This document shows, piece after piece, positions 1,016 to 56,400 of a DNA stretch of 64,000 bases. The stretch's first letter is position 1; each line of letters begins with the position of its first letter. The notes below the pieces were generated by a model, which had not been told where the DNA came from, ran no database searches, and worked only from the letters and a program-made list of their open reading frames with translations. The stretch is taken from IMG/VR virus record IMGVR_UViG_3300035501_000922; one strand, given 5' to 3'. The position numbers and the translations under genes were made by a program. The DNA is from a virus. Lineage: Duplodnaviria > Caudoviricetes.

Positions 1016-4000
1016 TTGACAGACTTGGCTAGTAATGATACAACAATCGACAGAAGTTATGTTGATAACTTTTCCGTCAAAGAGTTTACAAAAGAAAACT
1101 TAATTGATAAGTATTTTCCGGATATTGATGTTTCTTTAAGAACGGTCGGAATGGTTGGTTTTACAACAGAACAAGTGTCCAATATATCAGAGGATATTTT
1201 CAATACAGCGACAGTTTTATTTAGAGAAACATTTCCTAATAGAGCACAAATACCTGAGAGTATATATTCACATGCAGCCATTTTTCAGTTATCTAACGTA
1301 TTTTCTTCCGCAGCATCTTGTAAGTTCTTATTAGTGCTTGAAGAAGACGCTATAATTGAAAATATGGCTGATAGTTTTGATAAAGACACAGGAATATATA
1401 CATTTTATATTGATAAAAATACAATAATAAATGTAGAAGATATGCCATATATTTTAGATTATGACATTGAACTTCGCATTGTTAGAAAGAAAAATAAAGA
1501 TAACACCGATGACTATATATTCGCAGCATCATATGTTATTCCCGATAATTTTAAAAATACACTAGCTGATGATAATACTAATAGCGACCCATATATTAAG
1601 ATTAAGCGTTCTGCTGATGGCTATATTGCATTAGAGATAATCTGTCATCAGTGTACACGTTCAGTTGTATATGAGGATATCATTAGCAGTGGTACAATCA
1701 ATTATCCTGTTATTGATGTACCATTTGAAGGTAACTTAGCAGGATTTGATATACGATACAAAACATCTACTGATACAGATGATGATTATAAACAATTAAA
1801 AACATTGGTAGTGTATTCTCAACCCATAGAGGAAAAATTCTGCTATTATCAAATGGCTGATGAGAATACATTAAGAATTACATTCAACACAAAGGATGAA
1901 TATTTTACTCCAGATTATGGTAGTACATTAGAGATTACTCTTTATACTACACTCGGTGAAGATGGTAACTTTGATGTATATACAGGTACTGATATTTCAG
2001 TTACATCTAGTGATGAGAACTATCAGTACAGTACACCGTACATAACAGCAGCTAAGCCGATGACATCATCGAGTGGTGGTTCTGAGCAAATGAGCATGGA
2101 TGGACTACAGTCATTAGCTGTAATGAGTTATCGTACTGCTACAGCATTAACAACTGATGCTGACTTGTCTGAATATTTCTCAAATTACAAATACCTATAT
2201 GGTAACAGTGATATCATGTTCATTAAGAAACGTAATGATATATATGAGAGAATATATTCAGCATTCATTATAATGAAGAATGAAAATTATATATATAACA
2301 CAAACACACTTAGTTTAGCATTAAACTTAAGTGATATGGAAAATCCTGAAACTAGCATATACATGATTCATCCCGGAACTCTTTTTACTGCTTCCAGTAC
2401 AGATTATGGTTATGCTGATTTCTTCAGAGATACAGAATTAACTGCGCAAAATACATCATGGTACAATGAGTATTTAAAAGCAGTTGAAAAAGGTGAAGTA
2501 CTATTTGTGGATGACAGTGTTGACCATAATGACTTACCTGATTATCTTAAAGATAGAAGAGCATCATTTGCTGAATACAAGAAACGAAAAGGATATGATG
2601 ATAAAGTATTCGTGTTTGATTACGATACACCAACTAAGGAGCGAATTCTAAGAAATTATGATGATCCACATCATGAAGCTAATAATCACTTCTTATATAT
2701 TAATCCATTTTTGATAAGATTTAAAAAGAATCCAAACTTAGTAAGTATGTACATGACATATATCAATCAAGCATCCACCTTAGATTTTTCGTATAAATAT
2801 GATGATTCATATGTGCAATTCATACTGTATCAATTGAAAGTTAAGAGAGAATTCTCAAAAGAAAAGAAATACACTTTAAGTGTACAGTTAATGCCTAGTA
2901 CAAGCATCAGTGAGGACTACCCTATTATTAATAGTTCAATTACTACAGTCGATGGATATGAAGAAGTTGATTATGTATTAAATGATAAATATAATACATT
3001 CAATAACGACCTTAGAGTTTTCGTTGTTATAAATGACGGAGTTAAGGATGTTTGTTACATAGAGATGTATCCTACTGATTATGATATAGAAAATGAGAAC
3101 TTTACATTTACTGCAGAATTCTTTACTGATGACCATATCACAACAGATGGAAGACTGAGAGTATTATCTGGTACGATTTATAAACCTACGAAATATGAAA
3201 AGTGCTTATCAACATCAGTTCATGCTCTTCGTGTTGTTGATGATTCTACACCAAGTGATGAATTTGATTCAAAAACTATGATTAAAATATCGGATGTAAT
3301 ATCTGATATACCGGATATTAAAGTTGGTACTGAAGAAGATAAATATGAATACGCACAAATAGCACTTGCAAATGATTATTACCAAGTAAGTGATGATGAT
3401 TATACTATTTATCATCATTATGATGCTAATGGTGTAATTGAAAAAGATATTAACAATGATATCGTTGAATATCCTGTTGATTACATAACTCAGGAAGTTA
3501 ATGCTGGTAATTTAAGAAGATGGTGCCAAGTTGTAAATATGACAAGTAGTAGTGAAATACTCATACCTATGACAGATGTTAAGTGCTTAGTATACACAAC
3601 ATATCGTCGTAAATATGACCCTGATACTTTAAAACTGGAAGTTATTGACCCTGATAATGATGCTCTCTATGACGATGAAAAAGATAGGGATGTAAGAGTT
3701 ATCAATAATATATGCCCTGATAAGAGCTTGGGTGCTAATTCATATGATACGACGCTTGATAGTTATTTCATAACGAATGAGTATCAATCAGCGAGTGACC
3801 CAATAACATTTTTAAAACCATTGAATAATGTGAGGTCAAATCTCATATTTAAAGATTATACATTAACAGAAAACTATACTGATGATAATGGTAATGAAAG
3901 CTTTAGATATGTATATGATATACTTGATGCTGAGATATCATCAATACCATTTATTAGATGGTCAACTGCGTTAGATGAAGATAGTTTATCATATTTCATG

Positions 4001-4495
4001 AATAGCTTTTTAGCACAATATAATAATTTAATAGACATCATTAATACTAAACTGAGGAATGAAACATCCATAGATGTTAAGTTTTATAATACTTATGGAC
4101 GGAGTAAAAACTTTATTATCGGTGAAGAAGATGAGAGAATGGATACAGTTAATCTTTCATTATCATTTGATGTTTGGTTTACTCCGGGAACAGACCTCAT
4201 TAGTGTTGTACCTGATGTTAAAGAATATATTAAAACTGAGATTGAGACAATTAATTCTGATGGTTTGAATAATCTGTATATTTCTAACTTAATGAGAAAA
4301 ATTGAGTTACAGTTTGTTTATGTAGATCATATTCGTTTTAATTACATTAATGAATACGACCCAAAATATCAGGCTGTTAAGAATTACGTTACAGATTTAT
4401 CAGAGTTAACTGTAAGTGAAAGACGAGATTATGTACCTGAGTTTTTAGTAGTAGATACTGAAGATATTACTATTAACGAGTATTTCTCATCTTGA
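1016..4495 (+). CDS. Putative baseplate wedge-like virion protein (1159 aa) carrying inserted modules A and B
   Basis: Large acidic beta-rich ORF. N-terminal 'F..RAQ.PESIYSHA' and internal 'SSGG...T..D' segments resemble baseplate wedge (T4 gp6-like) proteins. Structural context. Confidence 0.55.
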   Translation: MTDLASNDTTIDRSYVDNFSVKEFTKENLIDKYFPDIDVSLRTVGMVGFTTEQVSNISEDIFNTATVLFRETFPNRAQIPESIYSHAAIFQLSNVFSSAASCKFLLVLEEDAIIENMADSFDKDTGIYTFYIDKNTIINVEDMPYILDYDIELRIVRKKNKDNTDDYIFAASYVIPDNFKNTLADDNTNSDPYIKIKRSADGYIALEIICHQCTRSVVYEDIISSGTINYPVIDVPFEGNLAGFDIRYKTSTDTDDDYKQLKTLVVYSQPIEEKFCYYQMADENTLRITFNTKDEYFTPDYGSTLEITLYTTLGEDGNFDVYTGTDISVTSSDENYQYSTPYITAAKPMTSSSGGSEQMSMDGLQSLAVMSYRTATALTTDADLSEYFSNYKYLYGNSDIMFIKKRNDIYERIYSAFIIMKNENYIYNTNTLSLALNLSDMENPETSIYMIHPGTLFTASSTDYGYADFFRDTELTAQNTSWYNEYLKAVEKGEVLFVDDSVDHNDLPDYLKDRRASFAEYKKRKGYDDKVFVFDYDTPTKERILRNYDDPHHEANNHFLYINPFLIRFKKNPNLVSMYMTYINQASTLDFSYKYDDSYVQFILYQLKVKREFSKEKKYTLSVQLMPSTSISEDYPIINSSITTVDGYEEVDYVLNDKYNTFNNDLRVFVVINDGVKDVCYIEMYPTDYDIENENFTFTAEFFTDDHITTDGRLRVLSGTIYKPTKYEKCLSTSVHALRVVDDSTPSDEFDSKTMIKISDVISDIPDIKVGTEEDKYEYAQIALANDYYQVSDDDYTIYHHYDANGVIEKDINNDIVEYPVDYITQEVNAGNLRRWCQVVNMTSSSEILIPMTDVKCLVYTTYRRKYDPDTLKLEVIDPDNDALYDDEKDRDVRVINNICPDKSLGANSYDTTLDSYFITNEYQSASDPITFLKPLNNVRSNLIFKDYTLTENYTDDNGNESFRYVYDILDAEISSIPFIRWSTALDEDSLSYFMNSFLAQYNNLIDIINTKLRNETSIDVKFYNTYGRSKNFIIGEEDERMDTVNLSLSFDVWFTPGTDLISVVPDVKEYIKTEIETINSDGLNNLYISNLMRKIELQFVYVDHIRFNYINEYDPKYQAVKNYVTDLSELTVSERRDYVPEFLVVDTEDITINEYFSS

Positions 4496-4496
4496 A

Positions 4497-4508
4497 AACA
4501 ATAACATA
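4497..4508 (+). promoter_or_regulatory. Late-type promoter AACA-N6-TA
   Basis: AACA ATAACA TA just upstream of RBS AAGGAG and the 4540 ORF. Matches the AR9 non-virion RNAP consensus. Confidence 0.6.
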
Positions 4509-4539
4509 AAAATGAATAATATAAAGGAGTGAATATATA

Positions 4540-5496
4540 GTGGAAACTTTTGCTGACAGAGAAAAGAGAGTTATTAACTTCATGGATGAAGTTAAAGCCA
4601 CAAAAGACCAGGAAGCTCAAGATGAGGCTTTCAAGAAAACGGATGATTATAAGCTAAAATGTTTGAATAGAAATCAAGATGACGCTAAGGGTGTTTGTCT
4701 TGATATGGTATTTTCAAAAATCTATAAAGACGCTTTACCTCTTAATAATGACTACAAAGTTGCCCATGGTGAAGACCTTGATGCTGAAATGAAGGATTTT
4801 ATTCAGGATCGTTGCCCTAAAGGTATGGCATACTATGTACGTGAGGGAATTAAGAAAGGTAGTAAGCCTGCTAAAAAGATTATGGATGAAACCAATAAGA
4901 TTGTAGAGGATGATTACAATCAGAAGGCCATGAACCTTGAAGATTATAATGCAGATGATATGGTTTTCCGTATGACTGGTGATAATCAAAAGAAGATTGA
5001 TGTTATGAATAGTAATCTTAATCTTGATGGAATTTCTGATGTTATCCGTGATAATGTTAAGTCCTCAGCTATATCTGAAATTAAAAGAGCTAAAGAAGAG
5101 AAAGATAGTATCAAGCAGTTTGAATCAGAACTTGCAAATGATATGAATGTTACTGATGAATCTGCTATTGATAATGCTCTTGAACTTTACGGTTTTACAG
5201 AGAAGAGAGATTTCCAACCTACGTTATTCCAAGGAATTATGATAGGTAAAATGAATCAACTGCAAAAGATGCAGGAATCTGGTAATCTTGAGCCTGAGTA
5301 TATTTATGATACATTGGCTGAATATGGATTACCTGAGCCTACTACTGAAGGTACCCATTATGCTACTATTGGGGAGCTTGCTTTTGTAGAATCTGTTAAG
5401 GAATATACAAAGCTTAATATTCTTAAAGCTTTAAAACTTGAAAAATTTGATATAAATAGTGTGAACGAACTGGCAAATAATTATGCGTCTAAATAA
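4540..5496 (+). CDS. Hypothetical protein, likely virion/head-associated
   Basis: 318-aa ORF with RBS AAGGAG, own late-type promoter and downstream hairpin. Contains x-x-E-S motifs (TDES, MQES, FVES). Confidence 0.6.
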   Translation: METFADREKRVINFMDEVKATKDQEAQDEAFKKTDDYKLKCLNRNQDDAKGVCLDMVFSKIYKDALPLNNDYKVAHGEDLDAEMKDFIQDRCPKGMAYYVREGIKKGSKPAKKIMDETNKIVEDDYNQKAMNLEDYNADDMVFRMTGDNQKKIDVMNSNLNLDGISDVIRDNVKSSAISEIKRAKEEKDSIKQFESELANDMNVTDESAIDNALELYGFTEKRDFQPTLFQGIMIGKMNQLQKMQESGNLEPEYIYDTLAEYGLPEPTTEGTHYATIGELAFVESVKEYTKLNILKALKLEKFDINSVNELANNYASK

Positions 5497-5499
5497 TTT

Positions 5500-5535
5500 A
5501 AAAGATGAGTATGTATTTTTACATACTCATCTTTT
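5500..5535 (+). terminator. Intrinsic terminator hairpin
   Basis: aaaagatgagtatgta...tacatactcatctttt inverted repeat directly after the stop at 5496. Confidence 0.75.
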
Positions 5536-5561
5536 TAGGTCTACTGCAAGTCAATCAAGAG

Positions 5562-5573
5562 AACAATGTCATA
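5562..5573 (+). promoter_or_regulatory. Late-type promoter AACA-N6-TA
   Basis: AACA ATGTCA TA lies between the terminator and RBS GAAAGGAAG, which supports a true start at 5619. Confidence 0.6.
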
Positions 5574-5618
5574 AGTTTAGCAATTATTTATAAAAATATT
5601 ATAGAAAGGAAGATTAAT

Positions 5619-7223
5619 ATGGAACGTCAAGTTATACATGACCATGTCCAGCTAAGTTCGTTACAGGGTAAACAGATTAAAAATGTTATATATCCTGAAA
5701 ATACAGCGCAGGATGTTATATTAAATACAGAAAATAATGCTAATGTTGATGCATGGGAGACCCTTCAAGATATTATTGATAATATAGGTATACTCGCATT
5801 TTATGATACAATTATTGATGACGGTAATAATGATGAAGGCACATATCAAAAATGTACTGCAACTGATGATGGGGCATTACTTGTAGTAAGTAATGATATA
5901 TCAGATAGTGATTTTAATAGCAATACTCAGATTAAATTGGAAGACATCTCTAAATATGTTGAAGATGCAAAAATAGGTGAATACTATAAAATTATCACTC
6001 TTCCTAATAATTTAACTTGGAGTTCATTAAAAATAAATAATAAAATGGTTGAGATCATGAATGAAATGAGTGAAGAACTCAAAAATAGTATTGATCAACT
6101 CAACGATAGTATTGATTCAACAAATACAAATATAACCACAACTATTAATAATAATATGAGTGTAATTGATAATACTTTAAGTGATCTTGACACTAGGACA
6201 TCAAAGATTGAAAAATATATAAAAAGAATTGTTACTAAACTATACAGTGCAGTTCTTACAGGCGATCCGGGAAAAAGTAGAAACACAAAGGATAGATCTG
6301 TTCAGTATTTTACAATAAATGGTGTGATATCTAATTATTTGGATTTATATTTAATAGATGATGGACGCCAGTATATTTATTGTGGGGATATAGCATCAAA
6401 TGAACATTGTAATGAACATTTATTAATTACCCAATCATATGAGAAATGTGAAAGTGGTGATGATGGTGCGATGAAAGTAATAGATTCCGACAGCGACCTA
6501 CCAACCGAAGATACAATGCCATTATGGTTTGTAGAGGGTGATGTGTCAGATATTAAAGTTGGGGAGTATGTCAGAGAGATGACTGGTAGTACACCTGATA
6601 ATTCACTAATTGAAACCTATCAAAAAGATACAGAAAATACTAAGGGCTCGTTACTTGTAGTTGATAACAGTGTGTCCGATGACGAATTTGATAGTGAAAC
6701 ACAAATTAAATTATCTGATATTACCAGTTATGTTGAAAATGCAAAAATAGGTGAATACTATCTTAAGGGTATATACAAGACAATTTCATATAAAACCGCT
6801 AGATATGATATACCATTCGGTATAATTTATACTGGAAAATATGTTTCACCATTAAATTATTCGTCTGATATATTTATCTATAAGTCTGAAATAATTAATG
6901 CCAGTAATCTTGGTGTTGTAGATATCTATACTGGAAGGAATGGCTATACATATTATATAAGCATTGCTAATGAAGCGGTAAGAGTATGTTTAGATGAAGA
7001 TAATGATTATCATATAGACCTTGGTGCAAATAATGTTATAATCGACAAAAGTACAAATAATGGTGATGAATTAATTAATATTGATAGTGAGAAAACTATT
7101 ATTAATAACACATTGAATATACCTACAACACTCAGGTATGGTCCATACAAAGCATCAAATAAAGAACATCAATTTGATTTTGTTTATGAAGATGATGGGA
7201 CATTGTCTATTATCGGAATATAA
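5619..7223 (+). CDS. Putative tail-fibre-associated protein with three copies of module A and a coiled-coil segment
   Basis: Start reassigned from 5505 to ATG 5619 (RBS present; the 5505 start lies inside the terminator). Three internal ~48-aa repeats. Upstream of the tail fibre gene. Confidence 0.55.
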   Translation: MERQVIHDHVQLSSLQGKQIKNVIYPENTAQDVILNTENNANVDAWETLQDIIDNIGILAFYDTIIDDGNNDEGTYQKCTATDDGALLVVSNDISDSDFNSNTQIKLEDISKYVEDAKIGEYYKIITLPNNLTWSSLKINNKMVEIMNEMSEELKNSIDQLNDSIDSTNTNITTTINNNMSVIDNTLSDLDTRTSKIEKYIKRIVTKLYSAVLTGDPGKSRNTKDRSVQYFTINGVISNYLDLYLIDDGRQYIYCGDIASNEHCNEHLLITQSYEKCESGDDGAMKVIDSDSDLPTEDTMPLWFVEGDVSDIKVGEYVREMTGSTPDNSLIETYQKDTENTKGSLLVVDNSVSDDEFDSETQIKLSDITSYVENAKIGEYYLKGIYKTISYKTARYDIPFGIIYTGKYVSPLNYSSDIFIYKSEIINASNLGVVDIYTGRNGYTYYISIANEAVRVCLDEDNDYHIDLGANNVIIDKSTNNGDELINIDSEKTIINNTLNIPTTLRYGPYKASNKEHQFDFVYEDDGTLSIIGI

Positions 7224-7243
7224 TATTAAGGAGATGAATACAA

Positions 7244-9337
7244 ATGGCAGAAGAAAATAGTGTAGCTGTAATTACATCAGATCCAATATCTACTACTGAT
7301 TCAGGTTTAAAACTTTACCTGAGAATAAGAGTACTAAGTCAGGATTTAAAAACCAACTCATCTAATGTAAGAATAGCTGTGTTAGCAACTAGAACAGATA
7401 GTAAAACAACTTCTTTAAAATCTTTTAGCCTTGATGGGTATGTAAGTTCAAAAACGTCAACAAGTGATCTGGATGAATACGGAGCTGGCTCAGATGCTAA
7501 TTTTACCACTCGTACAATTAAAAAAGGTACTAATACAGTAATATGGAGAAATGATAGTGACAGTGGAGATAATGGTGTAAAATTTACGCACGATAAAGTC
7601 GGATCGAAGACTATAACAATGTCTCTAACTACATTTAAGGCTAATTCAACAACTATTTTAAATAAAACAAAGAGTGGTGCACCATCAATTTCATTAGTTA
7701 TACCAGATTTAGGAACGGCTTCAACAATATCAAGTATTTCTGGCAATTCAACTTTAGGTACTTCAGGAACATTATCTGTAGCCATGAATGCTAGTCAGAT
7801 AGGGTTTACACATAAGCTTATGTTTAAAATAGGTAACACAAGTTATACCCTAAATGCAGGTTCGGCTTCTAAGAGATATACAGATTTTACATACGCACAT
7901 ACACTACAAGAAACTCTTATGAAAGAATTTAAAACGGAAACATCAATGACCATGACGGTTGTATTATATACATATCGAAATGGAACTTTAGTAGGGTCAA
8001 GCTATAAAAATCACACCGTCAGCATATCAAATAGTATCGGGCCATCAATAACAGTAAATTCATCATCTGCATATGCTACAAAAAATGTCTGGAGAGTAGA
8101 TGATATCAAAGGTACTATAGCGAAATACGGTGAAAGTGGTACTGTACCAGATGATGGTGAGACACTAATAATTGGTGGTAAAACCTTATTTAAATATGAT
8201 ATTTCAATAGGACATGCAAAAACGTATGATATGTCACCAATAAAAACAATAACAATACGTGATTCTAAAAATGTGTACTATAGTTGTCAGTATACAATGA
8301 CTGATAACAAGCTTGTTGTACAATTGGCTAGTTCATTTACTGTTAAATCAACATATGCATCACCATTATATATATCTGTAACTAATTTTCGTGGTAAAAC
8401 GATAACAAAAACACTTTTATCAGATATAAACTACGATTATACTTCACCATCGGCTACTATCACAAAAATTGAAAAAATAAATAACTCATTAAAAATTACA
8501 TTTAAGTACCATGGATGCACCTTTGGTGATAAAGAACATGTTCATAATTTCGTAGAGTTTTATCTGTATGGTCATGATCGCACGGAAGCTAATGACAATC
8601 GATGGAAATCATATGATAACAATGTAATGAAATTATATGAGAACGGTATGGGTACCCACTTTGGCAACGATGACAGTTTAAGCTATAGTACATCATCAAA
8701 TGGAAATACATATAGTGTAACGTTAGATGCTAGTAATTTTGACAATTCCGATCTTGATTCATATGATTTTAAAGTTTTGTATTGTGACTCATTTTCATGT
8801 GGTGAATCAAATACTTTATCTTATATAAATAAAGCAACATTTCTAAACTTCAATGCAGATAGCCAATCTATCGGTATTGGAGGAAAAGCAAGTATTGTTA
8901 ATGACAATAGTGTTACAATTGCTGATGGATGGGGTTTATATTTACCAACAGGTGATTATACACCTTCAAGTTCTTCAGGTGATGCACTGTATATGAATAC
9001 TACAACAGGTTTGATTTGTAAATTATCATCGGCACTCAGATACAAAGATGATGTAAACTATGATATAGATAAAGAAAAGATACACGAAATAGTATCAAAC
9101 TTTAAGCCTGTAACGTTTAAATATAAAAATAGTAATGATGTAGAATATGGTTTAATAGCAGATGACCTTGATAAGTTAGATAATAAACTGGTTGTATATA
9201 ATCAGGATGGCTCAGTTGAAAACTTCAGAGACCGTGGTATTTTAGCAATGTTAATTGTTGAAATTCAACGTCAGAATGCTATAATTGAATCATTATATAA
9301 AAAACTCGAAGATAAAGAAAATAAAGAAGACGAATAA
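7244..9337 (+). CDS. Tail fibre/spike protein with C-terminal peptidase S74 intramolecular chaperone
   Basis: Ser/Thr-rich beta-structured body. C-terminus 'SSALRYKDDV...KPVTFKYK...YGLIADDL...' followed by a coiled coil is the S74 chaperone signature. Confidence 0.75.
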   Translation: MAEENSVAVITSDPISTTDSGLKLYLRIRVLSQDLKTNSSNVRIAVLATRTDSKTTSLKSFSLDGYVSSKTSTSDLDEYGAGSDANFTTRTIKKGTNTVIWRNDSDSGDNGVKFTHDKVGSKTITMSLTTFKANSTTILNKTKSGAPSISLVIPDLGTASTISSISGNSTLGTSGTLSVAMNASQIGFTHKLMFKIGNTSYTLNAGSASKRYTDFTYAHTLQETLMKEFKTETSMTMTVVLYTYRNGTLVGSSYKNHTVSISNSIGPSITVNSSSAYATKNVWRVDDIKGTIAKYGESGTVPDDGETLIIGGKTLFKYDISIGHAKTYDMSPIKTITIRDSKNVYYSCQYTMTDNKLVVQLASSFTVKSTYASPLYISVTNFRGKTITKTLLSDINYDYTSPSATITKIEKINNSLKITFKYHGCTFGDKEHVHNFVEFYLYGHDRTEANDNRWKSYDNNVMKLYENGMGTHFGNDDSLSYSTSSNGNTYSVTLDASNFDNSDLDSYDFKVLYCDSFSCGESNTLSYINKATFLNFNADSQSIGIGGKASIVNDNSVTIADGWGLYLPTGDYTPSSSSGDALYMNTTTGLICKLSSALRYKDDVNYDIDKEKIHEIVSNFKPVTFKYKNSNDVEYGLIADDLDKLDNKLVVYNQDGSVENFRDRGILAMLIVEIQRQNAIIESLYKKLEDKENKEDE

Positions 9338-9380: not shown

Positions 9381-10430
9381 TTAATCGTTCACGATATTTG
9401 TTTTAATGACATAATCCCCAACTTCAATATCTGATATATCAGATATTACGTCAGATTTGTGAACCATCTTAGATGAATCAAAATCATCATCAGGATATTC
9501 GTCTTCAACTACTTTAAGTGACAAAGCATTATCTACAGTACTTCGCTCATATACAATAGTTTTCTCGGCTTCAGTAGTACTTGATGTATTCGTATCATTA
9601 GGTGTACTTACCTCAAGTACATCATTTGAGTTGTTCTTGAGTTTAATATTTTCTGTTAATATACTATTGATAACCTCGTCATTATAAATAACAATGATTT
9701 TTGTTAAATCAAGATTAATTGATAAATTAATGATACGAGGTTTAAAGTCATTAACAATTGGTTGAATTTCAATACCCTCAGTACGTGTTGAATATACAGG
9801 AATCTTATTTTCCAACGCAGTATTAATCGTACATGACTTGCAATTATAAGACTTAGAATAAATTGACGGATGATTGCTAACATCCTCGTCTTTAAACTTA
9901 TCTTGATAAATTGAAACATCATTAATAGAAATTGTGGTTCTCTTATTCTTTGTACACATAATACCATACGGTAAGGTATCTGTAATCATCCAGTCTAAAT
10001 CAACCTGAAGATGTTTAATTCTTCTGTATACACACTCATTCTCAGCATTTACACCAAGAGGATAAACAAAGTCTGTACTCTTGATAGGTTTGATTATAAC
10101 TGAGTGTTCAATCTCTTTTTGACTTGAATCATATACGGTGTAATCAACTGCAACCGTATAGCTATCATATACCTTATCAATTTCTGTAATACCATTATCT
10201 TTTATAAAATCAATAATCGTATCAGCATTTTCTTTATTGGACTTAATATTGGAGAAATCGAAATCACTAAAATACAAAGAAGCTTTAGTAATCTTTTGAT
10301 AAGGATCATTAGTTTGATTTACACTGTTAGGAGTAATCGTCTTTACGTCTGTAATAGGTGCTGTAACATCCTGTAACATCTGATATATAGCACCGTCGTT
10401 TATAGTATAAATAGATTTCATATTAATCAC
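9381..10430 (-). CDS. Hypothetical protein with C-terminal module A
   Basis: 349-aa ORF overlapping the rusA-like gene stop. The last ~50 aa match module A after a Ser/Thr linker. Confidence 0.65.
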   Translation of the reverse strand: MINMKSIYTINDGAIYQMLQDVTAPITDVKTITPNSVNQTNDPYQKITKASLYFSDFDFSNIKSNKENADTIIDFIKDNGITEIDKVYDSYTVAVDYTVYDSSQKEIEHSVIIKPIKSTDFVYPLGVNAENECVYRRIKHLQVDLDWMITDTLPYGIMCTKNKRTTISINDVSIYQDKFKDEDVSNHPSIYSKSYNCKSCTINTALENKIPVYSTRTEGIEIQPIVNDFKPRIINLSINLDLTKIIVIYNDEVINSILTENIKLKNNSNDVLEVSTPNDTNTSSTTEAEKTIVYERSTVDNALSLKVVEDEYPDDDFDSSKMVHKSDVISDISDIEVGDYVIKTNIVND

Positions 10431-11025
10431 CCTTTCGTATTATTTTTCTTTTATTAAAATTAGAATCATAATCTTCCATGTATGAAATGGTTACTTCAAT
10501 ACGTGGTTTAACCGAATAATATTTTGATGTTGTTCCTTCTACAATTAACGAGTCATCATATATTAGAAAACCCTGACACATGTCACAATATGTTTTAGCA
10601 ACATTATCCCAGTCAGGTTTTGAAGTTGGTCTAATGAATCCTAATTCTGCACACACCTTTTCAACTGCACTCATACTACTAGGAATTGGAAAGTATGCAT
10701 TGCAATAGAATTTAGTGGGTGTTGTTATTATATCTATGTCCTGATTTGTCATGAATTTTTCAAATATTTTTTTATTATCTTTTGCCCCTTTTACATAAAA
10801 TACTCCATTCTTACCACTTCTAGGTCGAGGTGTTGCTTTAGGTAAAAGATAAATAGTATATTTTATAGTTTTCCATTTTATATTCTTTATACGTGATATT
10901 TCATCATTGATCTTCTTTTGAGATTTTTTCAGATTTATTGTACGCAATAAATAATTGAGTCTCTCATCAGAGTCAGATGGAATATCACCGTATTTTTCGT
11001 TGTATTCTTTTTCAATCTTTAACAT
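10423..11025 (-). CDS. rusA: RusA-family Holliday junction resolvase
   Basis: Motifs 'PKATPRPR', 'KPDWDNVAKTYCD' and 'IYDDSLIV...K.YS..PRIEV' are the RusA signature. Confidence 0.85.
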   Translation of the reverse strand: MLKIEKEYNEKYGDIPSDSDERLNYLLRTINLKKSQKKINDEISRIKNIKWKTIKYTIYLLPKATPRPRSGKNGVFYVKGAKDNKKIFEKFMTNQDIDIITTPTKFYCNAYFPIPSSMSAVEKVCAELGFIRPTSKPDWDNVAKTYCDMCQGFLIYDDSLIVEGTTSKYYSVKPRIEVTISYMEDYDSNFNKRKIIRKGD

Positions 11026-15600: not shown

Positions 15601-18600
15601 ACCATTGACAAAACGGTTTCCTATTTCACCCATAAGGCTACTCAAACCTGAAAGTATACTATTAGTTGATGAGCTTGATGAGGAATCGGATGAGGAATCA
15701 ACTACAGTATTAGTTGATGTGTCATATGTAGAGTCATCACTTGAAGTACTATCCCCACAGTATACATATCCGTGTATACTTCTTTTATTATTCCAATCAT
15801 CAATTGATTGAACTTTAAGTTTACCATCATCTGAATCAACGACGTTATTTGCGGGGTTGTTAGCTTCAGTATAGTATACCTTGTTGTTATCGGTATCAAC
15901 ATCTTCTACAAACATTACGTGTCCGTATTGTGAGCTACTACCTAAAGAAACAAGTGAATTAGCTTTTAATGATGTGCCAGTATCATAACCATCTTTTGTT
16001 GCTTTGCTATATATTTCTCCTCCATTACCTCTGGGTCGGTCTGTTATTCCTTCCCATCCACATTTTTCATACGCACGACCCTCGGCGTACCATGTACACT
16101 GTCCTTCACTTAATTGGTTAATAGGTGATTTATATGCATCGCTATCGAAATTAGCAAGGCGTGTACCAAGTTTGCTCTCAAGTGCTGAACCAAAACCGCC
16201 ACCTTGTCCAAATGACCAAGCAGCTCCAGTTTGTGATGCAACATCATCGACATTAAATTTCTTTGAGTATGATTTACCTCTCGGGTCACTTATATCTATA
16301 TTACCGTTATTATCAATACCAGTTGCAACGACATAATGTCCAGCGGGTGTATATGGAGTATCTCCACTGCCAAATCCGCCAGTGCCAGAAGCACCAGAAA
16401 GTATCATTGGTTTTCCCTGCTCTAATTGCGATTGAATATATTCACCTGAAGGATTAAATTGCTCAGTAGAATTAATACCGTATGCAGCGGATGCTTTATC
16501 TATGAAGTTCCAGTTAGTACCAGTACTATCTCTATCACCAGTCATTTGAGCAAGTGACGCTGTTTCTGTAGGTGTAACATTTTGACCCGTCATCTGTGAT
16601 GCAACCATTGACATTGCTGTCGGTCCACATCCAGTATCACCCATTGTAGCACCATCATTACCATATGCACTATTCTTCCAATCGGAATCATTCTGCGAAT
16701 AGTAAGAAAATCCGTTTACTGTATCAGCTCCACGACCACCGTGAGGTGAACGTAGACGTCTGAATCCCATACCGGAACCTCCCATAATAGATGGTTCACC
16801 GTAATCGTCAGTATCGAAATCATCAACTGTATGTCCATCACCAGAACCACCAGTAATCCATTTAGTAAATTTAGTCCAACCTGCGGATACTGTTGATTTA
16901 GCTTTATCCCATGATTCTTTTACAGATTTCTTGATTTTATCTACTGCGTTTTTAGCAGCACTGTCTTTTTGTATTTTACCCTTTGTAAGTAATCCTGTAG
17001 TTATCTTTTCTTGTACTTCATCAGCGTCAATACCTTTTTCAATAAGGTCATTATTAGCATTATAGTAATCAAACTTCTTACCATTTTTAACATAGTAGTT
17101 TCCATTTGCATCAAACCACGCTTCTTGTGAACTTGATGATACCAATTTCTTAATTGAACCTATAATGCCATTTTCTTGTATTGACTTAAATACTGATGAT
17201 ACCTTAGATTTCATATTTTTATAAAGATCCTTTGCTTTAGATACACCTGTACTCCAAGCATTTGATAACTTATCTTTTATATTATTTAAACCTTCCTTAA
17301 GACTTGAGGAATTAACAACAGCCTCACCCTCAGTAAGATTACCAGAATTAATCTGTTCCGTTATTGTTTCAGAGTCCACATTTTCTTCAATTAAATCACC
17401 TGTAGCATTGTAATGATCGAATCCACTACCATTAGCAACATAGTAGCTACCATCAGTATCATACCACGCTTTTTCCTTCTTTGAAGTTAATGACTTAATT
17501 ACAGAAGTTAAAGGACTAGCAACTTTACTAGCTAGTTTACCCCATTTAGTATCACTGAGTTTACTTAGTTTAGTAAATACACCACTAGCTTTTTCTTTTA
17601 CAGACGAGAAGATGTTCTTTGCCTTATCTCCGATAGCACTAGCAATTGTTCCGATTTTATTCTTTACAGTTGCTGTACCTTCTTCGAGTTCTCCAGCAGT
17701 AATTCTTTCCTGAATTTCATCAGCATCAACATCTTCATCAATTTTACTACCATTAGCATTATAATGGTCAAAACTCTTTCCGTTTGCTACATAATAAGAA
17801 CCATCTGTATCATACCAAGCAGTTTCTTTTTTAGTAGTTAAAAACTTAGCTGCCTTCTTAGCTACATTCTTAACCTTCTTAGTAGTATCTTTTACTTTAT
17901 CTTTAGCTTTATTAAAAAGCTTTTTAGTTGAACCCAGAGGGTCTTTTATAAAATTCTTAGCTCCATTTTTAACTTTCTTAGCAGTATCTTTTACCTTATC
18001 TTTACCCTTATTGAATAGGTTTTTGGCACCTTTACCAAGTTTCTTAAGACCATTTTTACCTTTGTTGAATAGCTTCGTAGCACCGTTCTTAAGTTTTTTA
18101 CCCGCATTTTTGGCTTTATCAACACCAGCGGCTATTAAATCTCCACCTTTATCAGCCATAGATGAAAATGTATTTTTAACATTCTTACCAAACTGCTTAG
18201 CTTTATCAACACCAGCAGCTATTAAATCTCCACCTTTATCTATAAGGTTATCATATGCATCAGCTATTTGAGCACCTACTGTTTTATTTTGGTCATCGTT
18301 CCAATCAGCAAACGAATCATATTTAACGGTATATGTACCATCGTTAACACCATCGATATAGTCAGCGAGAGATACCTCATTACCATCTATTTCACCATTT
18401 TTAACAGCGGTTTCGTATGCATCTTCAATTTCTCCTTGGCGATATTCTTCATATTCGCCTTTCCATTCAATTTGGGCATCTTGTAATTTATCTACATCTT
18501 TGTCTTTTGCAACGATGTTATATATTGCACATGCTATTTGAGTGAGAAGGTCAAAGCCAAGTATGCCTACACATACAACCTCATTTACTAAATCGACGAT

Positions 18601-41931: not shown

Positions 41932-42135
41932 ATGAGTAATATGGATAAAGAAAAAGAAGAGATGAAAGAATCTATTAATGAGATTATTTTTCTTTCCGAT
42001 TTTATATGCTACAATTCTTTAGAAAAGAATCAAAAGAAAATAAAAAAGAAATTGAAGAAATTATTAAATCATATTGAAAATGATGAATTTTCTCAATGTA
42101 TGAGTGAGGAGTGGTTACAAAAATATGACGAATGA
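41932..42135 (+). CDS. Hypothetical protein (67 aa)
   Basis: RBS GTGAGGA, first gene of the operon. Confidence 0.65.
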   Translation: MSNMDKEKEEMKESINEIIFLSDFICYNSLEKNQKKIKKKLKKLLNHIENDEFSQCMSEEWLQKYDE

Positions 42136-42670
42136 AAAACTTTATAAATACTATTTCTTCTATCTCAAAACAGAAGGCTATAAACCTGAACTGTATGCAT
42201 ATACAGATAATAAGGAACTTGCTGATGAATTTGAAATAGAAAGAAATATGGATTTGTTTGTTAAGAAAAAACACAAGATAACAAGAGGAGCTGTGAATGA
42301 CCTTGCTCAGGAATATCCTGAATTAGCAATTGAGTTAATAGACGGTGTAACTAAAAGTAATGATAATATATCACATACCGTTAAATTTTCAATGGCAGTA
42401 ACTGCAGTTGAAAGAATGAGTATTGTAACTGAATTTAATAATGTAGTTTTTTATCAATTACTTTCATTATCATCAATAGATCCTCGTGCGTTTAAACCGA
42501 GTATACAAAAATCTTTAAACATTATTGATTATACCTATAACTATTATACATATCATTTAGAGGCTAGTATTCCAGATGATGTATATGAATATCAATATTG
42601 TTATGATATGGATTTGTTTGGTGTATTCGTTAATTTATATGGAAAACTTTTAAGGAATAGTGGTGATTAA
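42125..42670 (+). CDS. Paralog family member 1 (LYA.T..K..A..F...R motif)
   Basis: Shared N- and C-terminal motifs with the next three ORFs. Start likely ATG 42125. Confidence 0.7.
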   Translation: MTNEKLYKYYFFYLKTEGYKPELYAYTDNKELADEFEIERNMDLFVKKKHKITRGAVNDLAQEYPELAIELIDGVTKSNDNISHTVKFSMAVTAVERMSIVTEFNNVVFYQLLSLSSIDPRAFKPSIQKSLNIIDYTYNYYTYHLEASIPDDVYEYQYCYDMDLFGVFVNLYGKLLRNSGD

Positions 42671-42672
42671 AA

Positions 42673-43338
42673 ATGAAAAAAGTATATCTTATATATGCAA
42701 AGATAACTTCGGAATTGTGGAATGAATGGTTTTCTCATGTTGTTGATTATTCGAAGAGGCTATTCAAATACAATGAGTCCATGGATTATTATATAGGATT
42801 ATACGCATGGACTACAGATAAGTCTCTTTATAAAACTTTTAAGAAGAATAGGGAGTACTGTAAGTATTATGTGTATATGGATAAGTCCATGACAAAACGA
42901 GAGTTTAAAGAGTTTAAAAAATTAAATGGTGATAATCGTTTGTCTGTATATAGTTATAGTAGAGGAGATTACAACAGACTTCCGCCAGTTCAAGTTGTAA
43001 CAACATGTAGTGAGCGTAGTACTATACTTGAACGTGAGAATCTAGTTATGGTCTTGTATACGGTTTTCCCTCAGTTTGACGTGGAGTATTATTGGTTTAA
43101 TAATAAAATTATAGACGCTCTGGATAAACTAATGTATACATCAGTTTATGATGTTGATTGGGGTGGAGATTCAGCATGCTTTACAACAGAAGAACGTGAC
43201 CAACGAATAGATTATGCAAATAATAATATGTCGTATGGATTAACTGTGTATGGCAATAAATTCTTTGATATATTCACAAATGAGTTTGGTTTGTTAATGT
43301 TTATATTCAAGCCGATGTTTATAGGAGGAGGTTTTTAA
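42673..43338 (+). CDS. Paralog family member 2
   Basis: 'LYAWTTDKSLYKTFKKNR'. Confidence 0.7.
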   Translation: MKKVYLIYAKITSELWNEWFSHVVDYSKRLFKYNESMDYYIGLYAWTTDKSLYKTFKKNREYCKYYVYMDKSMTKREFKEFKKLNGDNRLSVYSYSRGDYNRLPPVQVVTTCSERSTILERENLVMVLYTVFPQFDVEYYWFNNKIIDALDKLMYTSVYDVDWGGDSACFTTEERDQRIDYANNNMSYGLTVYGNKFFDIFTNEFGLLMFIFKPMFIGGGF

Positions 43339-43964
43339 TGAAAGTTTATTGTTTTTATCTATATGGTGATGAGCTTACTACAAATAAGTATGCGGCATTA
43401 CCGTATGATAATACGAGAATGAGTAATGAATTTATGTATTCATTATATGGATTTACTAATAATAAAAAGATTGCAGGAGAATTTCGTAAGAGTAGAGATA
43501 TGAATATATTCTTTGAGAAAACAATGGATATGAGTTCTAAGGAATATGAGGCATTGTCTGAAGATAAAATGGAATGTGAAATCAGACACTATCCATACAA
43601 AATTCCTGCGATACGTGATGATAAAATAACAGTTGAGTTGATGTTTATTACATCTACTACATCAGAGTATAATAAAATATGTTTTGACGGTACCACATAT
43701 CTTAATAAGGTATATTCTGATACGTATAAAAACATGACATACATTAGACCTACTGATTTCAATGATATATTATCTATCACGTTACGAAAGGTTTTCAATT
43801 ACTATGATGTATTGGATTGGGTACGGCAAATTGATAGTTTACCAGACTACAGTTTTGATATAAATACCTGCTCATTATATTTTCATGTATTTGGAAATAC
43901 TTATAACGAAGAAAGGATGAGTGAAGCATGCAATTATGGAGATTCTTTAAGAAACCTAGCATAG
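43338..43964 (+). CDS. Paralog family member 3
   Basis: 'LYGFTNNKKIAGEFRKSRDM'. Confidence 0.7.
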   Translation: MKVYCFYLYGDELTTNKYAALPYDNTRMSNEFMYSLYGFTNNKKIAGEFRKSRDMNIFFEKTMDMSSKEYEALSEDKMECEIRHYPYKIPAIRDDKITVELMFITSTTSEYNKICFDGTTYLNKVYSDTYKNMTYIRPTDFNDILSITLRKVFNYYDVLDWVRQIDSLPDYSFDINTCSLYFHVFGNTYNEERMSEACNYGDSLRNLA

Positions 43965-44497
43965 ATGCTGATGATGTACCTACTGTATTGACAATAACAG
44001 ACAGGTATCCATTATATGCAATAACATGTGATAAAAAGTTAGCAAAGAGGTTTCAACGAGAAAGAAATTCTGATAAATTCATTATCAAAAAAACGAAAGT
44101 AGATAAAGCTGAATATGCTGAATATGCTATGCGTAATAGGTCATGTGTTTTGTGTATTCAAAAGCTAACTACTGTAAAGAATAAAAACACGAAAGACCAA
44201 GAGATACTTGATGTAGAGGTTCTACTAACTACTGCAGAATATCAAATATGTAAAGAACCAATGATTCTTATTGGTGACGATTCGTGGTGGACGAACACAG
44301 CATATGAGGTTCCTAATCCTTATATATTTAATACTGAGGTAACTAAAGCATTACGTTATTTTGATTATATCATGTTGTATAAACTTTTTGTAGAAAGTGC
44401 TGAAATGATGGAACAAGATGACGACTACTCTGTACCACAATGGTATATTGATGAGTTAGCTTATTTTGTTGATATATATCAGGATACATTCAGGTAA
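43928..44497 (+). CDS. Paralog family member 4
   Basis: 'LYAITCDKKLAKRFQRERN'. Confidence 0.7.
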   Translation: MQLWRFFKKPSIDADDVPTVLTITDRYPLYAITCDKKLAKRFQRERNSDKFIIKKTKVDKAEYAEYAMRNRSCVLCIQKLTTVKNKNTKDQEILDVEVLLTTAEYQICKEPMILIGDDSWWTNTAYEVPNPYIFNTEVTKALRYFDYIMLYKLFVESAEMMEQDDDYSVPQWYIDELAYFVDIYQDTFR

Positions 44498-44535: not shown

Positions 44536-45219
44536 ATGATAATAATGGCTAAGAAAACTACTATAAAAGATAATATTAAGTTGATGAGTATAACAGCTCC
44601 TGAGCCAATGGAATACTATGTTAATATTGAAACTGATAAGGACAGAAAGAAATATGTTTTTCAGATTGAAAAGATTGTTAGGAGTTCTCTTGAATATAAG
44701 GATTATATTAATTTCTTAAAAGAAAATCTTGACTTAAATAAGTGCATATTTTTCCAGAATGTCACATCAGATAAAACTAATCGACGTAGTAAAGTTAGTA
44801 TTGAATTACATCATGAACCATTTACATTATTCGATTATGTGAATACTGTAGTTACCAAATATCAAACTGAGGGGCTACCGCTTAACGCATTAAACATAGC
44901 TGATGAAGTACTCGAACTTCATTATGCTAATAAGGTTGGTTTAGTTCCTTTATCTAAAACGATGCATGAGGTTATTCATAATTCAACAAAGCTTCTTGTT
45001 CCATTGAATATGTGCTATGGTGATTACTCACAATTTTTGGAAGAATATGAACCGTACATATCGGAAGATATGTACGATAAACTTGAACGGAAATTGGATA
45101 TGACGAAAAACCTAACGCCAGATTCATTTGAAGCTATTAAGAAAGAATTTACTTATGTTGACGTTAAGGGTTTTGAAGGTGTAGATAAATTACAAACCGC
45201 ATCTTCACAAATAGCATAA
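44536..45219 (+). CDS. HNH-like (His-Me finger) protein, paralog of 52682-53308
   Basis: 'IELHHEPFTLFDY...LVPLSKTMHEVIH'. GACA-N6-TA promoter at 44510-44521. Confidence 0.55.
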   Translation: MIIMAKKTTIKDNIKLMSITAPEPMEYYVNIETDKDRKKYVFQIEKIVRSSLEYKDYINFLKENLDLNKCIFFQNVTSDKTNRRSKVSIELHHEPFTLFDYVNTVVTKYQTEGLPLNALNIADEVLELHYANKVGLVPLSKTMHEVIHNSTKLLVPLNMCYGDYSQFLEEYEPYISEDMYDKLERKLDMTKNLTPDSFEAIKKEFTYVDVKGFEGVDKLQTASSQIA

Positions 45220-48992: not shown

Positions 48993-49003
48993 GGTGAACA
49001 GCT

Positions 49004-50484: not shown

Positions 50485-50497
50485 AGGAGAATGCTGA

Positions 50498-51157: not shown

Positions 51158-51164
51158 AAGGGAA

Positions 51165-51206
51165 AAGTAAATGAGAGTAATTTAAACAAATTACTCTCAT
51201 TTACTT
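51165..51206. terminator. Bidirectional terminator
   Basis: aagtaaatgagagtaattt/aaattactctcatttactt. Confidence 0.8.
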
Positions 51207-51211
51207 ATTTA

Positions 51212-51739: not shown

Positions 51740-51875
51740 AAGTATAAATTATGGTATTGTCGATATGGTAATTTTTAAAATGCGTAAACTATAAAACTTA
51801 AGTTATACATTATTTATGTGCAAAAAAGCAAAAAATAATCCATAACGTAAAAATAATATTAAGGAGGAATATATT

Positions 51876-52646: not shown

Positions 52647-52682
52647 AAGAGAGAGAGTGTGTAAAAGCACTCTCTCTTTTTT
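52645..52682. terminator. Bidirectional terminator
   Basis: aaaagagagagagtg/cactctctctttt between convergent genes. Confidence 0.75.
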
Positions 52683-53308
52683 TATATTAATTTCTTATTT
52701 AATTCGAGAACTCCAAAGTCATTTGAATCATACAGTAATGATCTATCTATATAACGATTTAACTGTTCTCTGTATTCATCAGAAATGGCATCAGCATATT
52801 TATCTATAAATTCTTTAAGATTACCATATGCTTGACGTTGATTTATAAAGATATTACCATTATGAATTTGCTCATGCACAGTCGTACTTACCATTACAAT
52901 CTGTATTCTATTTTTTTGGTGTTCGTCTAATACTGCATCAGCAATTCTTGCAGTACTTATTTTCCATTTTTTTAATATGAAGTATTCTAGTACTATTGCA
53001 CAATAATCGAATAATGTAAATATAGGACCATGATGCATTTCAATACTTGCATCTTCATCTGTTATATTTTTAAAGACCTGACATCTATCAAGCTTTACTT
53101 CTTTTTTTAGATATCTTATATACTTATTATATCTGTCATTGGTTCGCACTAATCTTTCACAACCCCTGATAAAATTTACATAACTCTCATAGTTACTAAA
53201 ATAATTAGTATCCTTATAGTATGGGATATTATAAAATGATGACTTTGCATCTATAATAGGGGTTATGTTAGATTTATCATATATTATATCTGGTAATGAT
53301 TTTGCCAT
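52682..53308 (-). CDS. HNH-like protein, paralog of 44536-45219
   Basis: 'IEMHHGPIFTLFDY...VMVSTTVHEQIH'. GACA-N6-TA promoter at 53340-53351. Confidence 0.55.
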   Translation of the reverse strand: MAKSLPDIIYDKSNITPIIDAKSSFYNIPYYKDTNYFSNYESYVNFIRGCERLVRTNDRYNKYIRYLKKEVKLDRCQVFKNITDEDASIEMHHGPIFTLFDYCAIVLEYFILKKWKISTARIADAVLDEHQKNRIQIVMVSTTVHEQIHNGNIFINQRQAYGNLKEFIDKYADAISDEYREQLNRYIDRSLLYDSNDFGVLELNKKLI

Positions 53309-53424
53309 TTTAATTCCTCCCGTAAATACATAAATAAATTATATCAATGTCGATTAAATAAAAAAATCGCTATTTTCTTGTAGACAATTCCTTAATAAAC
53401 TTCATTAAAGGAGCTGAATACGTA

Positions 53425-56400
53425 ATGAGTTTAGACTACATAAATCCAATGACAAATTTATATAAAGAATTTCTTGTTATATTACAAAAGATTGTCATTA
53501 AATATAATTATTTAGCCGATACATATGAAACTGTTGAAATGACTCGAAAAGCTAATGAGTATTTGGATGCAGTTGAGAAAAAGGATACCTTTTTCACGTA
53601 TCGTGATTATACTTATGAAGATTTTGATGCAGTTAAACTTTTTGATTATGATATAAGGAAAAAAGCTGTTACTGATATTCGTGCTATACCTGTAGATAAT
53701 TACAATGAAAAGACAGGCATAGGTACTCAGTATAGGCAGAAGCTTTTAGAATTACGTCGTAAAAAAGTCATAGAAGAATATGAAGAACAGAATAACTATT
53801 ATAGAATGTTAAATGGTCAGCCTGATACAGATGCTGACCCTCGCTATTTTTTCTATGTGACAGATGAAATAGCTGAAGAGTATGGAATTGACCCCACTAT
53901 TCCAATACATGAATTACAAGATTACTATAATAATCTTGACCCTGATTTTCCAGACCATGGTGACCAGATTATGGCTATTCTTGAAGGTATTGGTTATATT
54001 GATACTGTCAAGAATGCATCAAGAGAAAAGAGAAACCTGATATATGGTGGTTCCATCTGTGGTGGCTCTGGTGCTATGGTTACAGCTTCATTGACAACAG
54101 CTGCAAGAGCTGAACTAGGGATAACATCAATGAGAATTAATCTCACTAATGATGCGAGTCCTATTACCGGATATAAAGCTAATGAAAATCTTTATTATAA
54201 TGCTGCAACAATTAGTTCGTTTGCTGGTCTTGATATACAACCGGGTGACTGGGTTATGTCAACAGGTAGTAAATGGAAGAAAGTTGATAGCGACGTAGAT
54301 ATACAGGGTGAAAGCGATACCTGTGAGGGTTATTTGAATTATCTGGGTTCACAGAGAATTAGTATATTAACTGCTCGTAAAGCTAAAAACTTTGAGATAC
54401 TTCGTCTAGATAAAAATCTTATTCGTACGAATGTTTATGATACATTTGTAGATATATACAATCAGTGTCGTGACTATATGGTAACCGTAGTATATCAGTA
54501 TGACTTCAGGTCATTTATGAGTTATTATGATAACTTCATTGCTATGTGCATTATGCTTATGGCTGAACTTCATCTTATAACTAAACAAATACCATATGAA
54601 GTTAGAAGAAACTTTTTTGATGTATATGCATTACGTATGCTTTATGAAGCATATAATATGCCGTATGATATATATGTAGATATAGATACACAAAACCTGA
54701 TTGCTCAGAACCTGAATATGATTATTATTAATAAGGCTACTAATAAAGTTATTTATGACGTAGCTAATTTACTAGGATTCAGTAACTTAACAGCGTATAA
54801 ATATTATCTTGCTAAGCAACATAAACTTGACCCTTATGGTAATCCTATATTCAAGACTACTGAAAGATTTAATACTGATACGGGAGAGTTAGAAACGGTT
54901 CCTGATTATGATACAATGTATGATATCTATTTCCAAAAAGAAGAATTAATGGAAGATGATTTTATACAGTCATTCAATAGTAAGGTAAACCGTGTTGAGT
55001 ATAATGTCATAACTCCGAATGATGCATTCTGGTGGGAAGACCAAAACTTAATTGATAGAAAGAATGAAACCGACTATAACTTTGTGGAAAGCAAATATTT
55101 AAGTTTGGGTCTTTCATATAAAATGACTGATGTTTTATTTGAAAATGTCATTCTGTTAAAAACTGTAATGTATTATAAAAACGAACTTAGTGATATTAGC
55201 ATATCACTTCCTAAGATTATAACAGGTGCTCCTGTTCCTTTATTCGATGCTATAATTCTTTTAATTTGTCTTGTAAGTAAGAAGCATAACCTGACTGGTG
55301 AGATTATCTCTATACCAACTGATATTATATCAGTTTTGGATTATTTGAATAATATGGAAAGTAGTCGTGGTTTAGTTGATACATTTGCATTCGATTTTGA
55401 TTATTTCAAAACTGATGAAGGACAAGATGAAATTGAAAAAGTTAAAGAGTGTTTGGGTAAAATAGCAGTTGGTTTATTTGACAGCACGGGTGGATACTAT
55501 GTTTTTGATGACCCAACCTATAGCTATTATAATAGTTTTGATGAGAAAGTTGAAAGTGATATTAGCACTGATGTAGTGGCAGAACTCATGAAGATGGGTG
55601 AATTAACTACAGGTGAAGTTGATGTACATGGTGATGACGTTGATTTATTCGAAGAATACATCAGCGTACTATCATTAGATTCTGTTAGTGGACGTGCTGA
55701 AAAAATAGAGACTCTTAATAAAATCTATACGAATATTAAAGGTCTCTATAAGTTCTTAAATGAAAAGATGATTGATGCTTCTGATAAAGAAACATATGAC
55801 ACTTTGAGAACGTTCTATAATGCTGCATTTTATGCTAAAGAAGTAAAAGATATATTTACAATTCAGTGGAGAGACAGTACGGGAGAAACTCACCAGAGAA
55901 CTGCAAAGAACTTTTTTGAATATTTATATTACAAAAACCGTAGTTTATATCTATCTATTTTCTATATGGATTTTGAAAATGAGTATGATAAGTTCCTTAA
56001 CAATAATACATTCCCCACACTTATTCATAGTACATCCGATAATCCTGATTCTCTTTTAGTAATAGATGACGATGATAATATGACTGGACCTTCAATTAAA
56101 TTATCTGAGGTACAGAAGTATGTACCAAATGCAAGGGTTGGCGATAGAGTTGAAATATGTCCTGAACCAACTTATGCTGAATTTACTGATAAACTTAATG
56201 CAGGTTTAATTGATGTATCATTTGATGTGATGAAAGAGATTACAGAAGGAGAGAGTAACAATGAAAGTGCAATGAGTGCTACTATCTATTATTACGTAAA
56301 TCATATTATCTCGAAATTTAAAAATATAGTAGATAATATTGACTATTCATATATGCTTAATGATGTATCAACTTTATTACAGGACTTATTGATTAAACTG

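Follow-up and report, generated by a model that had tools for sequence, protein, structure and literature searches.

The question raised by this locus is why the same short acidic segment should be encoded six times, in frame, by four genes whose products have no other similarity in common. The locus is a 64,000-nucleotide stretch of DNA from a tailed phage (IMG/VR record IMGVR_UViG_3300035501_000922), which we refer to throughout as the window, and the count of six copies covers the window alone. An earlier note, made from the letters alone, had called the segment module A and took it to be either a portable tag of virion proteins or a selfish coding element. We favor the reading that the module is a promiscuous, solvent-exposed accessory domain of virion proteins, which by analogy would resemble the immunoglobulin-like (Ig-like) and carbohydrate-binding add-ons of other phages, and we give this a probability of roughly 0.6. 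The reading is preferred because the module appears to be a small autonomous domain on a flexible linker, because it occurs in tandem arrays, in the additional-domain region of the tail sheath and beside carbohydrate-binding domains, and because it is dispensable in close orthologs.

All six stretches translate in frame to the motif of the module without a single stop codon. The first copy (3182-3367, plus strand; core 3194-3330) lies in a gene at 1016-4495 (plus) for a late protein of 1159 amino acids (aa), the ortholog of AR9 g212 (phrog_18960, function unknown), where it takes up residues 723-784 (core 727-771). This insertion, at what we call site B, is missing in the orthologs of three relatives (G001, G002 and L027). 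The next three copies lie in a gene at 5505-7223 (plus), directly upstream of a tail-fiber gene, for a 572-aa orphan protein with a coiled-coil stretch. These are copy 2 at 5835-6005 (plus; core 5844-5987, residues 114-161), copy 3 at 6429-6590 (plus; core 6438-6572, residues 312-356), which has diverged furthest among these three, and copy 4 at 6609-6779 (plus; core 6618-6761, residues 372-419), which is 65% identical to copy 2. Copy 5 is on the minus strand at 9390-9566 (core 9408-9551) and forms residues 289-347 (core 294-341) of a 349-aa protein (9381-10430, minus) that consists of a beta-sandwich N-terminal domain, a linker and the module. The last copy, at 55996-56166 (plus; core 56020-56151), forms residues 858-914 (core 866-909) of a 1347-aa virion structural protein (53425-57468, plus), the ortholog of AR9 g260 (phrog_20751), and is missing in the orthologs of G001 and G003. 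The earlier labels of "baseplate" and "fibre-associated" for the host proteins are unproven, the AR9 counterparts being a hypothetical protein (g212) and a virion protein (g260).

Since scoring a profile on its own training set would be circular, significance was assessed with profiles from which one host was left out at a time, run against all six-frame open reading frames (ORFs) of the window. The left-out copies were regained with E-values of 2.9e-15 for the 1159-aa protein, 9.5e-13 for the 349-aa protein and 1.6e-7 for the 1347-aa protein, and those of the 572-aa protein with 2.1e-13, 2.5e-10 and 9.1e-5. These profiles found no further ORF in the window below an E-value of 0.4, and a profile made from 108 members of the family returned exactly the six known copies from the window and no seventh. 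An all-against-all BLASTP comparison of the four host proteins found no common similarity outside the module. The leave-one-host-out E-values and the BLASTP comparison thus confirm the original observation of six in-frame copies in four otherwise unrelated proteins.

Searching 1.84 billion representative proteins with the six-copy profile gave 107 matches at an E-value of 1e-3 or less, 29 of them at 1e-10 or less, and when the module is masked these fall into many mutually unrelated groups. No family in Pfam, NCBIfam or PHROGs covers the module, either in the hosts of the window or in the matches scanned, and profile searches with the module copies gave no meaningful match among the sequences of the PDB; the impression that the module belongs to no named family has therefore been borne out. 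Two bacterial-looking SLH or LRR proteins (P0106 and P0108) were taken as chance matches, as they cover only the last 20 profile positions, a common Gly-Asp-x-Val hairpin. Across 108 instances of the module the near-fixed hydrophobic or structural positions are Tyr3, Ala13, Leu14, Val16, Val17, Ile32, Val37, Ile41, Pro42, Ile44, Val46, Gly47, Tyr49 and Val50, and the near-fixed acidic ones are Asp19, Asp23, Asp27, Asp43 and Glu/Asp48. The same instances have a median net charge of -6 and a median isoelectric point of 4.3. The conserved acidic loop suggests putative cation binding or a cation-bridged contact.

The portability of the module becomes apparent when the host proteins are compared with their orthologs, since those that are 61-64% identical cleanly lack it and others are filled at different sites. 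The 1159-aa orthologs of G001 and G002 align over residues 5/7-721/722 and 785-1156/1157 and skip the 62 module-bearing residues; the one of G001 is 61% identical over the whole alignment and has about 4 residues in place of the module. Similarly, the 1347-aa ortholog of G001, 64% identical over the best-matching segment, aligns to residue 857 and resumes at 915, with about 8 residues replacing the module. The inserted unit is the predicted folding unit, including the few residues that flank the core on each side. A second site in the 1159-aa family, after residue 458, holds a well-preserved copy only in P0033, L021 and L024 and is empty in the window, L022, G001 and G002. At other sites of the 1347-aa family there is a clean 62-residue insertion of the module in P0092, two copies at two further sites in P0090 and an extra copy in P0098, and syntenic orthologs of the 572-aa protein have 0, 1, 2 or 3 copies. 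Beyond the hosts of the window, copies are found between conserved core parts of two tail sheath proteins (P0012 and P0034), in proteins with F5/8 type C or CBM_5_12 carbohydrate-binding domains, and in short proteins built of three or four tandem copies.

These alignments bear directly on the idea that the segments could belong to the ancestral core of the proteins or could resemble each other only through an acidic composition. The module is indeed ancestral in the family of the 349-aa protein, and its sequences are rich in Asp and Glu. However, orthologs of the other hosts cleanly lack the module, which refutes the idea for three of the four host proteins. Most of the conserved positions are hydrophobic (Tyr3, Leu14, Val16, Val17, Ile32, Val37, Ile41, Gly47, Tyr49 and Val50), and the leave-one-host-out E-values are low. 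We regard this as the least probable of all the readings considered.

The insertions are old, and the one at site B of the 1159-aa protein is common to orthologs that are 56-67% identical. In L021, L022, L024 and P0033 the equivalent of 3182-3367 has an acidic insert of 13-17 residues in the module loop and has lost the terminal Val-Gly-Glu-Tyr-Val motif; going by these sequences, the site B module of those four looks like a decaying or remodeled copy.

The earlier note had placed all the copies at apparent insertion points. This stands for the 1159-aa and 1347-aa proteins, given the clean absence in their orthologs, but not for the 349-aa protein. The family of the latter is the largest group of module carriers, with 55 sequence clusters, and in every full-length member (55 of 55 clusters) the module is C-terminal, behind a flexible linker rich in Pro, Asp and Gly. 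The 349-aa gene follows the tape-measure, 500-aa virion-protein and RusA genes, a position that is kept in twelve related contigs, and in G001, a complete relative of 254 kb, the copy in the 349-aa family is the sole module in the genome. Given the C-terminal placement in all full-length members, the kept gene order and the sole copy of G001, the module is an ancestral C-terminal domain of the 349-aa family and was not inserted there. The 1159-aa copy has its nearest relatives not among the other copies of this genome but in the 349-aa family, whose C-terminal modules are 50-60% identical to it. This nearness, seen at the level of sequence, points to the 349-aa gene family as the donor of the 1159-aa copy.

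When the module was modeled alone with AlphaFold2, it gave a predicted local distance difference test (pLDDT) score of 89.8 and the order strand, strand, acidic loop, strand, four-residue helix, strand. In the model of copy 4 the strands are at 4-9, 17-21, 35-37 and 53-59 and the helix at 38-41, in the numbering of the stretch 6609-6779. Within the model of the 349-aa protein the module has a pLDDT of 93-96 and directly follows a linker that is predicted to be disordered (residues 273-286, pLDDT below 50; 9573-9614, minus). The module is modeled confidently both alone and after a disordered linker, and so it is predicted to fold autonomously, as a unit of about 55-58 residues. The length of about 48 aa proposed earlier is that of the core, but the folding unit extends a few residues further on each side.

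A Foldseek search with the module model found no significant match. An Ig-type beta-sandwich, which takes 80-100 residues, was considered and rejected, since the model, at about 55 residues, shows four strands and the Ig-family profiles of Pfam gave no match covering any module copy. An intein was rejected as well, because the junctions are variable and have neither a Cys/Ser/Thr first residue nor a C-terminal His-Asn followed by a nucleophile, and because the unit is far shorter than any mini-intein. The whole model of the 349-aa protein had no significant Foldseek match in the PDB or BFVD. For its N-terminal beta-sandwich domain VIA-align gave generic FN3-like or Ig-like sandwiches only, with Z scores of 4.8 or less.

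The one recurrent look-alike is NusA, which raises the possibility that the module was captured as a fragment of the NusA N-terminal domain and interacts with an RNA polymerase, for example the virion-packaged polymerase of AR9-like phages. NusA chains make up 8 of the 10 top Foldseek rows for the module model, with a best E-value of 0.2 and a probability of 0.77, which is below significance, and the N-terminal domain of E. coli NusA (2kwp) superposes on the model with a root-mean-square deviation (rmsd) of 3.0 over 44 columns. Independently of Foldseek, VIA-align with the module alone listed four rows at Z 2.0-2.4, among them residues 55-99 of T. maritima NusA at Z 2.0, with an rmsd of 4.3 over 45 residues and 29% identity. 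The Pfam profile NusA_N (PF08529) gave a partial match to the 572-aa protein (18.3 bits, E 0.0028, profile positions 63-93, against a curated cut-off of 23.8 bits) and others to P0010 (E 7e-5) and P0038 (E 2e-6), the module matches spanning positions 59-93 of the 119 in the profile. In P0038, a metagenomic protein of 1411 aa, the score of 28.2 bits is reached as a sum only, with no single stretch above the cut-off.

Against this, every score is below significance, and NusA_N has no match in the other three hosts, in the 46 members of the 349-aa family or in the complete relative G001. The 108-member module profile against E. coli NusA gave a P of 0.025 with no proper alignment, hhalign against the same protein found nothing in the N-terminal domain, and the profile searches of PDB sequences missed NusA. 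Membership of NusA_N was rejected on size and fold too, as that family is an alpha/beta domain of about 120 residues with N-terminal helices, while the module, at about 55 residues, is made of four strands and a single four-residue helix. It spans only about a third of the domain, and its contexts are tail and fiber proteins. Given the failed profile and hhalign tests and the failed Pfam test on the 46 members, we see in the module a weak resemblance to part of the NusA N-terminal domain but no membership of that family, and we consider capture from NusA to be highly improbable. As a separate observation, the strongest NusA_N signal in P0038 (the 28.2 bits summed) falls at residues 914-956, outside the stretches flagged by the module profile, and this part may be a divergent copy of the module, linking the two families.

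At the level of DNA the copies can be asked for signs of a selfish in-frame coding element, which would spread as DNA in the manner of the Rickettsia palindromic elements and be tolerated without being useful. Such an element would account for the independent in-frame insertions, of which there are at least two sites in the 1159-aa family and at least four in the 1347-aa family. However, the six DNA copies have no conserved ends or flanks (mean column identity 62%), and none has hairpin potential, with folding z values from -0.91 to +1.26. Second codon positions have the highest identity in 15 of 15 copy pairs (57-81%), the order second, first, third is followed in 10 of the 15, and third positions are 36-58% identical compared to the 36% expected by chance. 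With second positions conserved and third positions not far above chance, selection acts on the module protein and not on its DNA. The age of the insertions, the single copy of the complete relative and the confidently predicted fold with its conserved hydrophobic core also argue against a selfish element. As the DNA lacks the signs of a mobile element, we reject this part of the earlier proposal, and the little probability that we leave to it is only somewhat above that given to NusA capture.

The other part of that proposal, virion decoration or docking, fits the contexts in which the module is found, namely sheath, fiber-adjacent and virion proteins. Additional domains of phage sheaths are located away from the tube (PMC9230969). 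In the accessory-domain reading the module has its original place at the C-terminus of the conserved protein of about 350 aa that uncultured AR9-like jumbo phages encode. The DNA for exactly one folding unit would have spread from this gene, in frame, to variable parts of further late or virion proteins, presumably by illegitimate or short-homology recombination followed by selection. The recipients would be the g212-like, g260-like and fiber-adjacent 572-aa proteins here and tail sheath and carbohydrate-binding fiber-like proteins elsewhere, and the copied modules would then have been duplicated in tandem. On the particle the module may provide extra low-affinity contacts to a host-surface polymer, possibly via bound cations, or to another particle component; here we infer both its surface exposure and its binding.

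Several points weigh against an accessory domain of this kind. That the hosts sit at the virion surface and that the module binds anything is what we infer, the annotation of AR9 g212 goes no further than a hypothetical protein, and a virion role of the 349-aa family is unproven. The strong acidity of the module is unlike typical Ig-like or carbohydrate-binding add-ons. Additionally, the copy at the 1159-aa site appears to be decaying in several lineages, with the 13-17 residue insert and the loss of the final strand motif, which argues against a strictly required function at that place.

The main alternative, which we find unlikely, is that the module is a shared docking or address domain, which binds one common site or itself and recruits unrelated proteins to the same place on the tail, for example to a fiber-encrusted sheath of the PBS1 type. 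The module is common to sheath, fiber-adjacent and core virion proteins, and the sheaths of AR9 and PBS1 have been described as fiber-encrusted (PMC9230969). Additionally, the layout of the 349-aa protein, a beta-sandwich with a terminal module, resembles that of T4 Hoc, an Ig-like decoration protein whose C-terminal domain anchors it to the capsid (PMC10385173). However, the 1159-aa and 1347-aa proteins occur in relatives without the module, so no tag is needed for their incorporation. The arrays of 3-4 copies and the variation from 0 to 3 copies among orthologs suit adhesin-like repeats better than a specific plug, and since the complete relative G001 has a single copy, no module-to-module network is possible there. 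A bolder form, in which the module is the plug for a shared socket and its insertion alone attaches any protein to a defined tail site, linking for example sheath, baseplate and accessory fibers, seems to us doubtful to a greater degree. If it were true, virion composition could be rewired by moving one unit of 55 residues.

Comparing the module as an accessory domain with known systems helps to place it. Ig-like accessory domains of phage structural proteins were reportedly treated by Fraser et al. in J Mol Biol in 2006. Like the module, such domains (Big_2, I-set and FN3, as well as Hoc) are small and beta-rich, occur on unrelated virion proteins including sheath and fiber, are dispensable in orthologs, are often in tandem and are exchanged between proteins. 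Unlike them, the module is very acidic, and its unit of about 55 residues, with four strands and a short helix, is not an Ig sandwich; its binding is putative. In siphophages of lactococci and streptococci, carbohydrate-binding modules are inserted in several virion proteins, such as evolved Dit, Tal and the neck passage structure (PMC6669499). The likeness there is that one type of domain is cleanly inserted in different tail or baseplate proteins and is variably present among orthologs. However, those modules are lectin-like folds of 150-200 residues with demonstrated sugar binding, while the present module, a third as long, shows no detectable similarity to them and is found in jumbo phages of myovirus type. 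The NusA N-terminal domain (PF08529, about residues 55-99) has in common with it the succession of hydrophobic strand, acidic loop, short helix and Gly-Asp/Glu-aromatic-Val strand, but only a sub-part is matched, with non-significant scores, and the setting is transcription rather than virion proteins. Finally, the Rickettsia palindromic elements are likewise short in-frame insertions in unrelated genes, but they are conserved as palindromic DNA, whereas the DNA of the module is diverged and unstructured and its protein fold is conserved.

Large parts of the virion proteins of jumbo phages are unannotated, and a compact, uncatalogued domain family has now been defined in them. The family now has a usable profile and a confidently predicted fold, its ancestral home is clear, and its insertions are repeated and datable. 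Together these provide a natural example of domain shuffling in phage particles beyond the Ig-like and carbohydrate-binding families. They also mark tolerated insertion sites in conserved AR9-type proteins, which could be useful for display or engineering. If the module does bind a ligand of the host or gut surface, it would indicate adsorption determinants of an uncultured clade of rumen or gut phages. The module family alone does not open a long-standing question.

As to the phage itself, the window has a G+C content of 32%. The 1159-aa and 1347-aa proteins are 23-30% identical to g212 and g260 of AR9/PBS1 and to their counterparts in jumbo phages of Staphylococcus, Listeria, Fusobacterium and Yersinia. 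Relatives were also looked for by other routes. At the DNA level, the segment 1016-9337 matched nothing in the phage collection. The 572-aa and 349-aa proteins had no tblastn match among 50,697 phage records, and a word-indexed search of proteins was likewise empty for the 572-aa protein. When IMG/VR was scanned for the pattern of the six-copy alignment, zero loci were confirmed, and no relative was found in the species-representative genomes scanned. The protein atlas gave sub-threshold leads only, with tail-fiber families at 0.82-0.87 and NusA-like rows at a template-modeling (TM) score of about 0.2. For two of the host genes the start most likely lies downstream of the one given above. That of the 349-aa gene would be the ATG at 10421, three codons in, giving 346 aa and the beginning MKSIYT as in the family consensus. 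That of the 572-aa gene would be the ATG at 5619 (residue 39), where the homologs and the protein-atlas record begin.

The minus-strand genes beside the 349-aa gene encode a RusA resolvase, the 500-aa virion structural protein and a giant protein of 4358 aa, an arrangement that mirrors AR9 g208, g205 and g204. The RusA-type Holliday-junction resolvase gene (10423-11025, minus) lies between virion genes as in AR9 (g208) and is the best conserved of the neighborhood, being 51-77% identical in 12 of 12 relatives. After the 572-aa gene comes a 697-aa gene (7244-9337, plus) for a tail fiber with DUF859 and an S74 chaperone domain. In four of the five syntenic relatives (L021, L022, L024, L027 and L028) only the last 105-125 or so residues of this fiber are kept, at 35-38% identity, and the remainder differs, with lengths from about 690 to 1055 aa. 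Since only the C-terminal part is kept and the rest differs in sequence and length, the comparison suggests that the fiber body may be swapped as a cassette.

A stretch of the 1347-aa protein at 55441-55629 (plus) matches three repeats in the 4358-aa giant protein (16972-17901, minus) at 27-38% identity, with E-values of 1e-4 to 3e-4, and this shared segment is probably what the earlier note had called module B. Two genes at 44536-45219 (plus) and 52682-53308 (minus) are paralogs with 33% identity across 152 residues (E 2e-26). Three genes for proteins of about 190-220 aa form a weaker family, in which 42104-42670 is related to 43928-44497 and 43338-43964.

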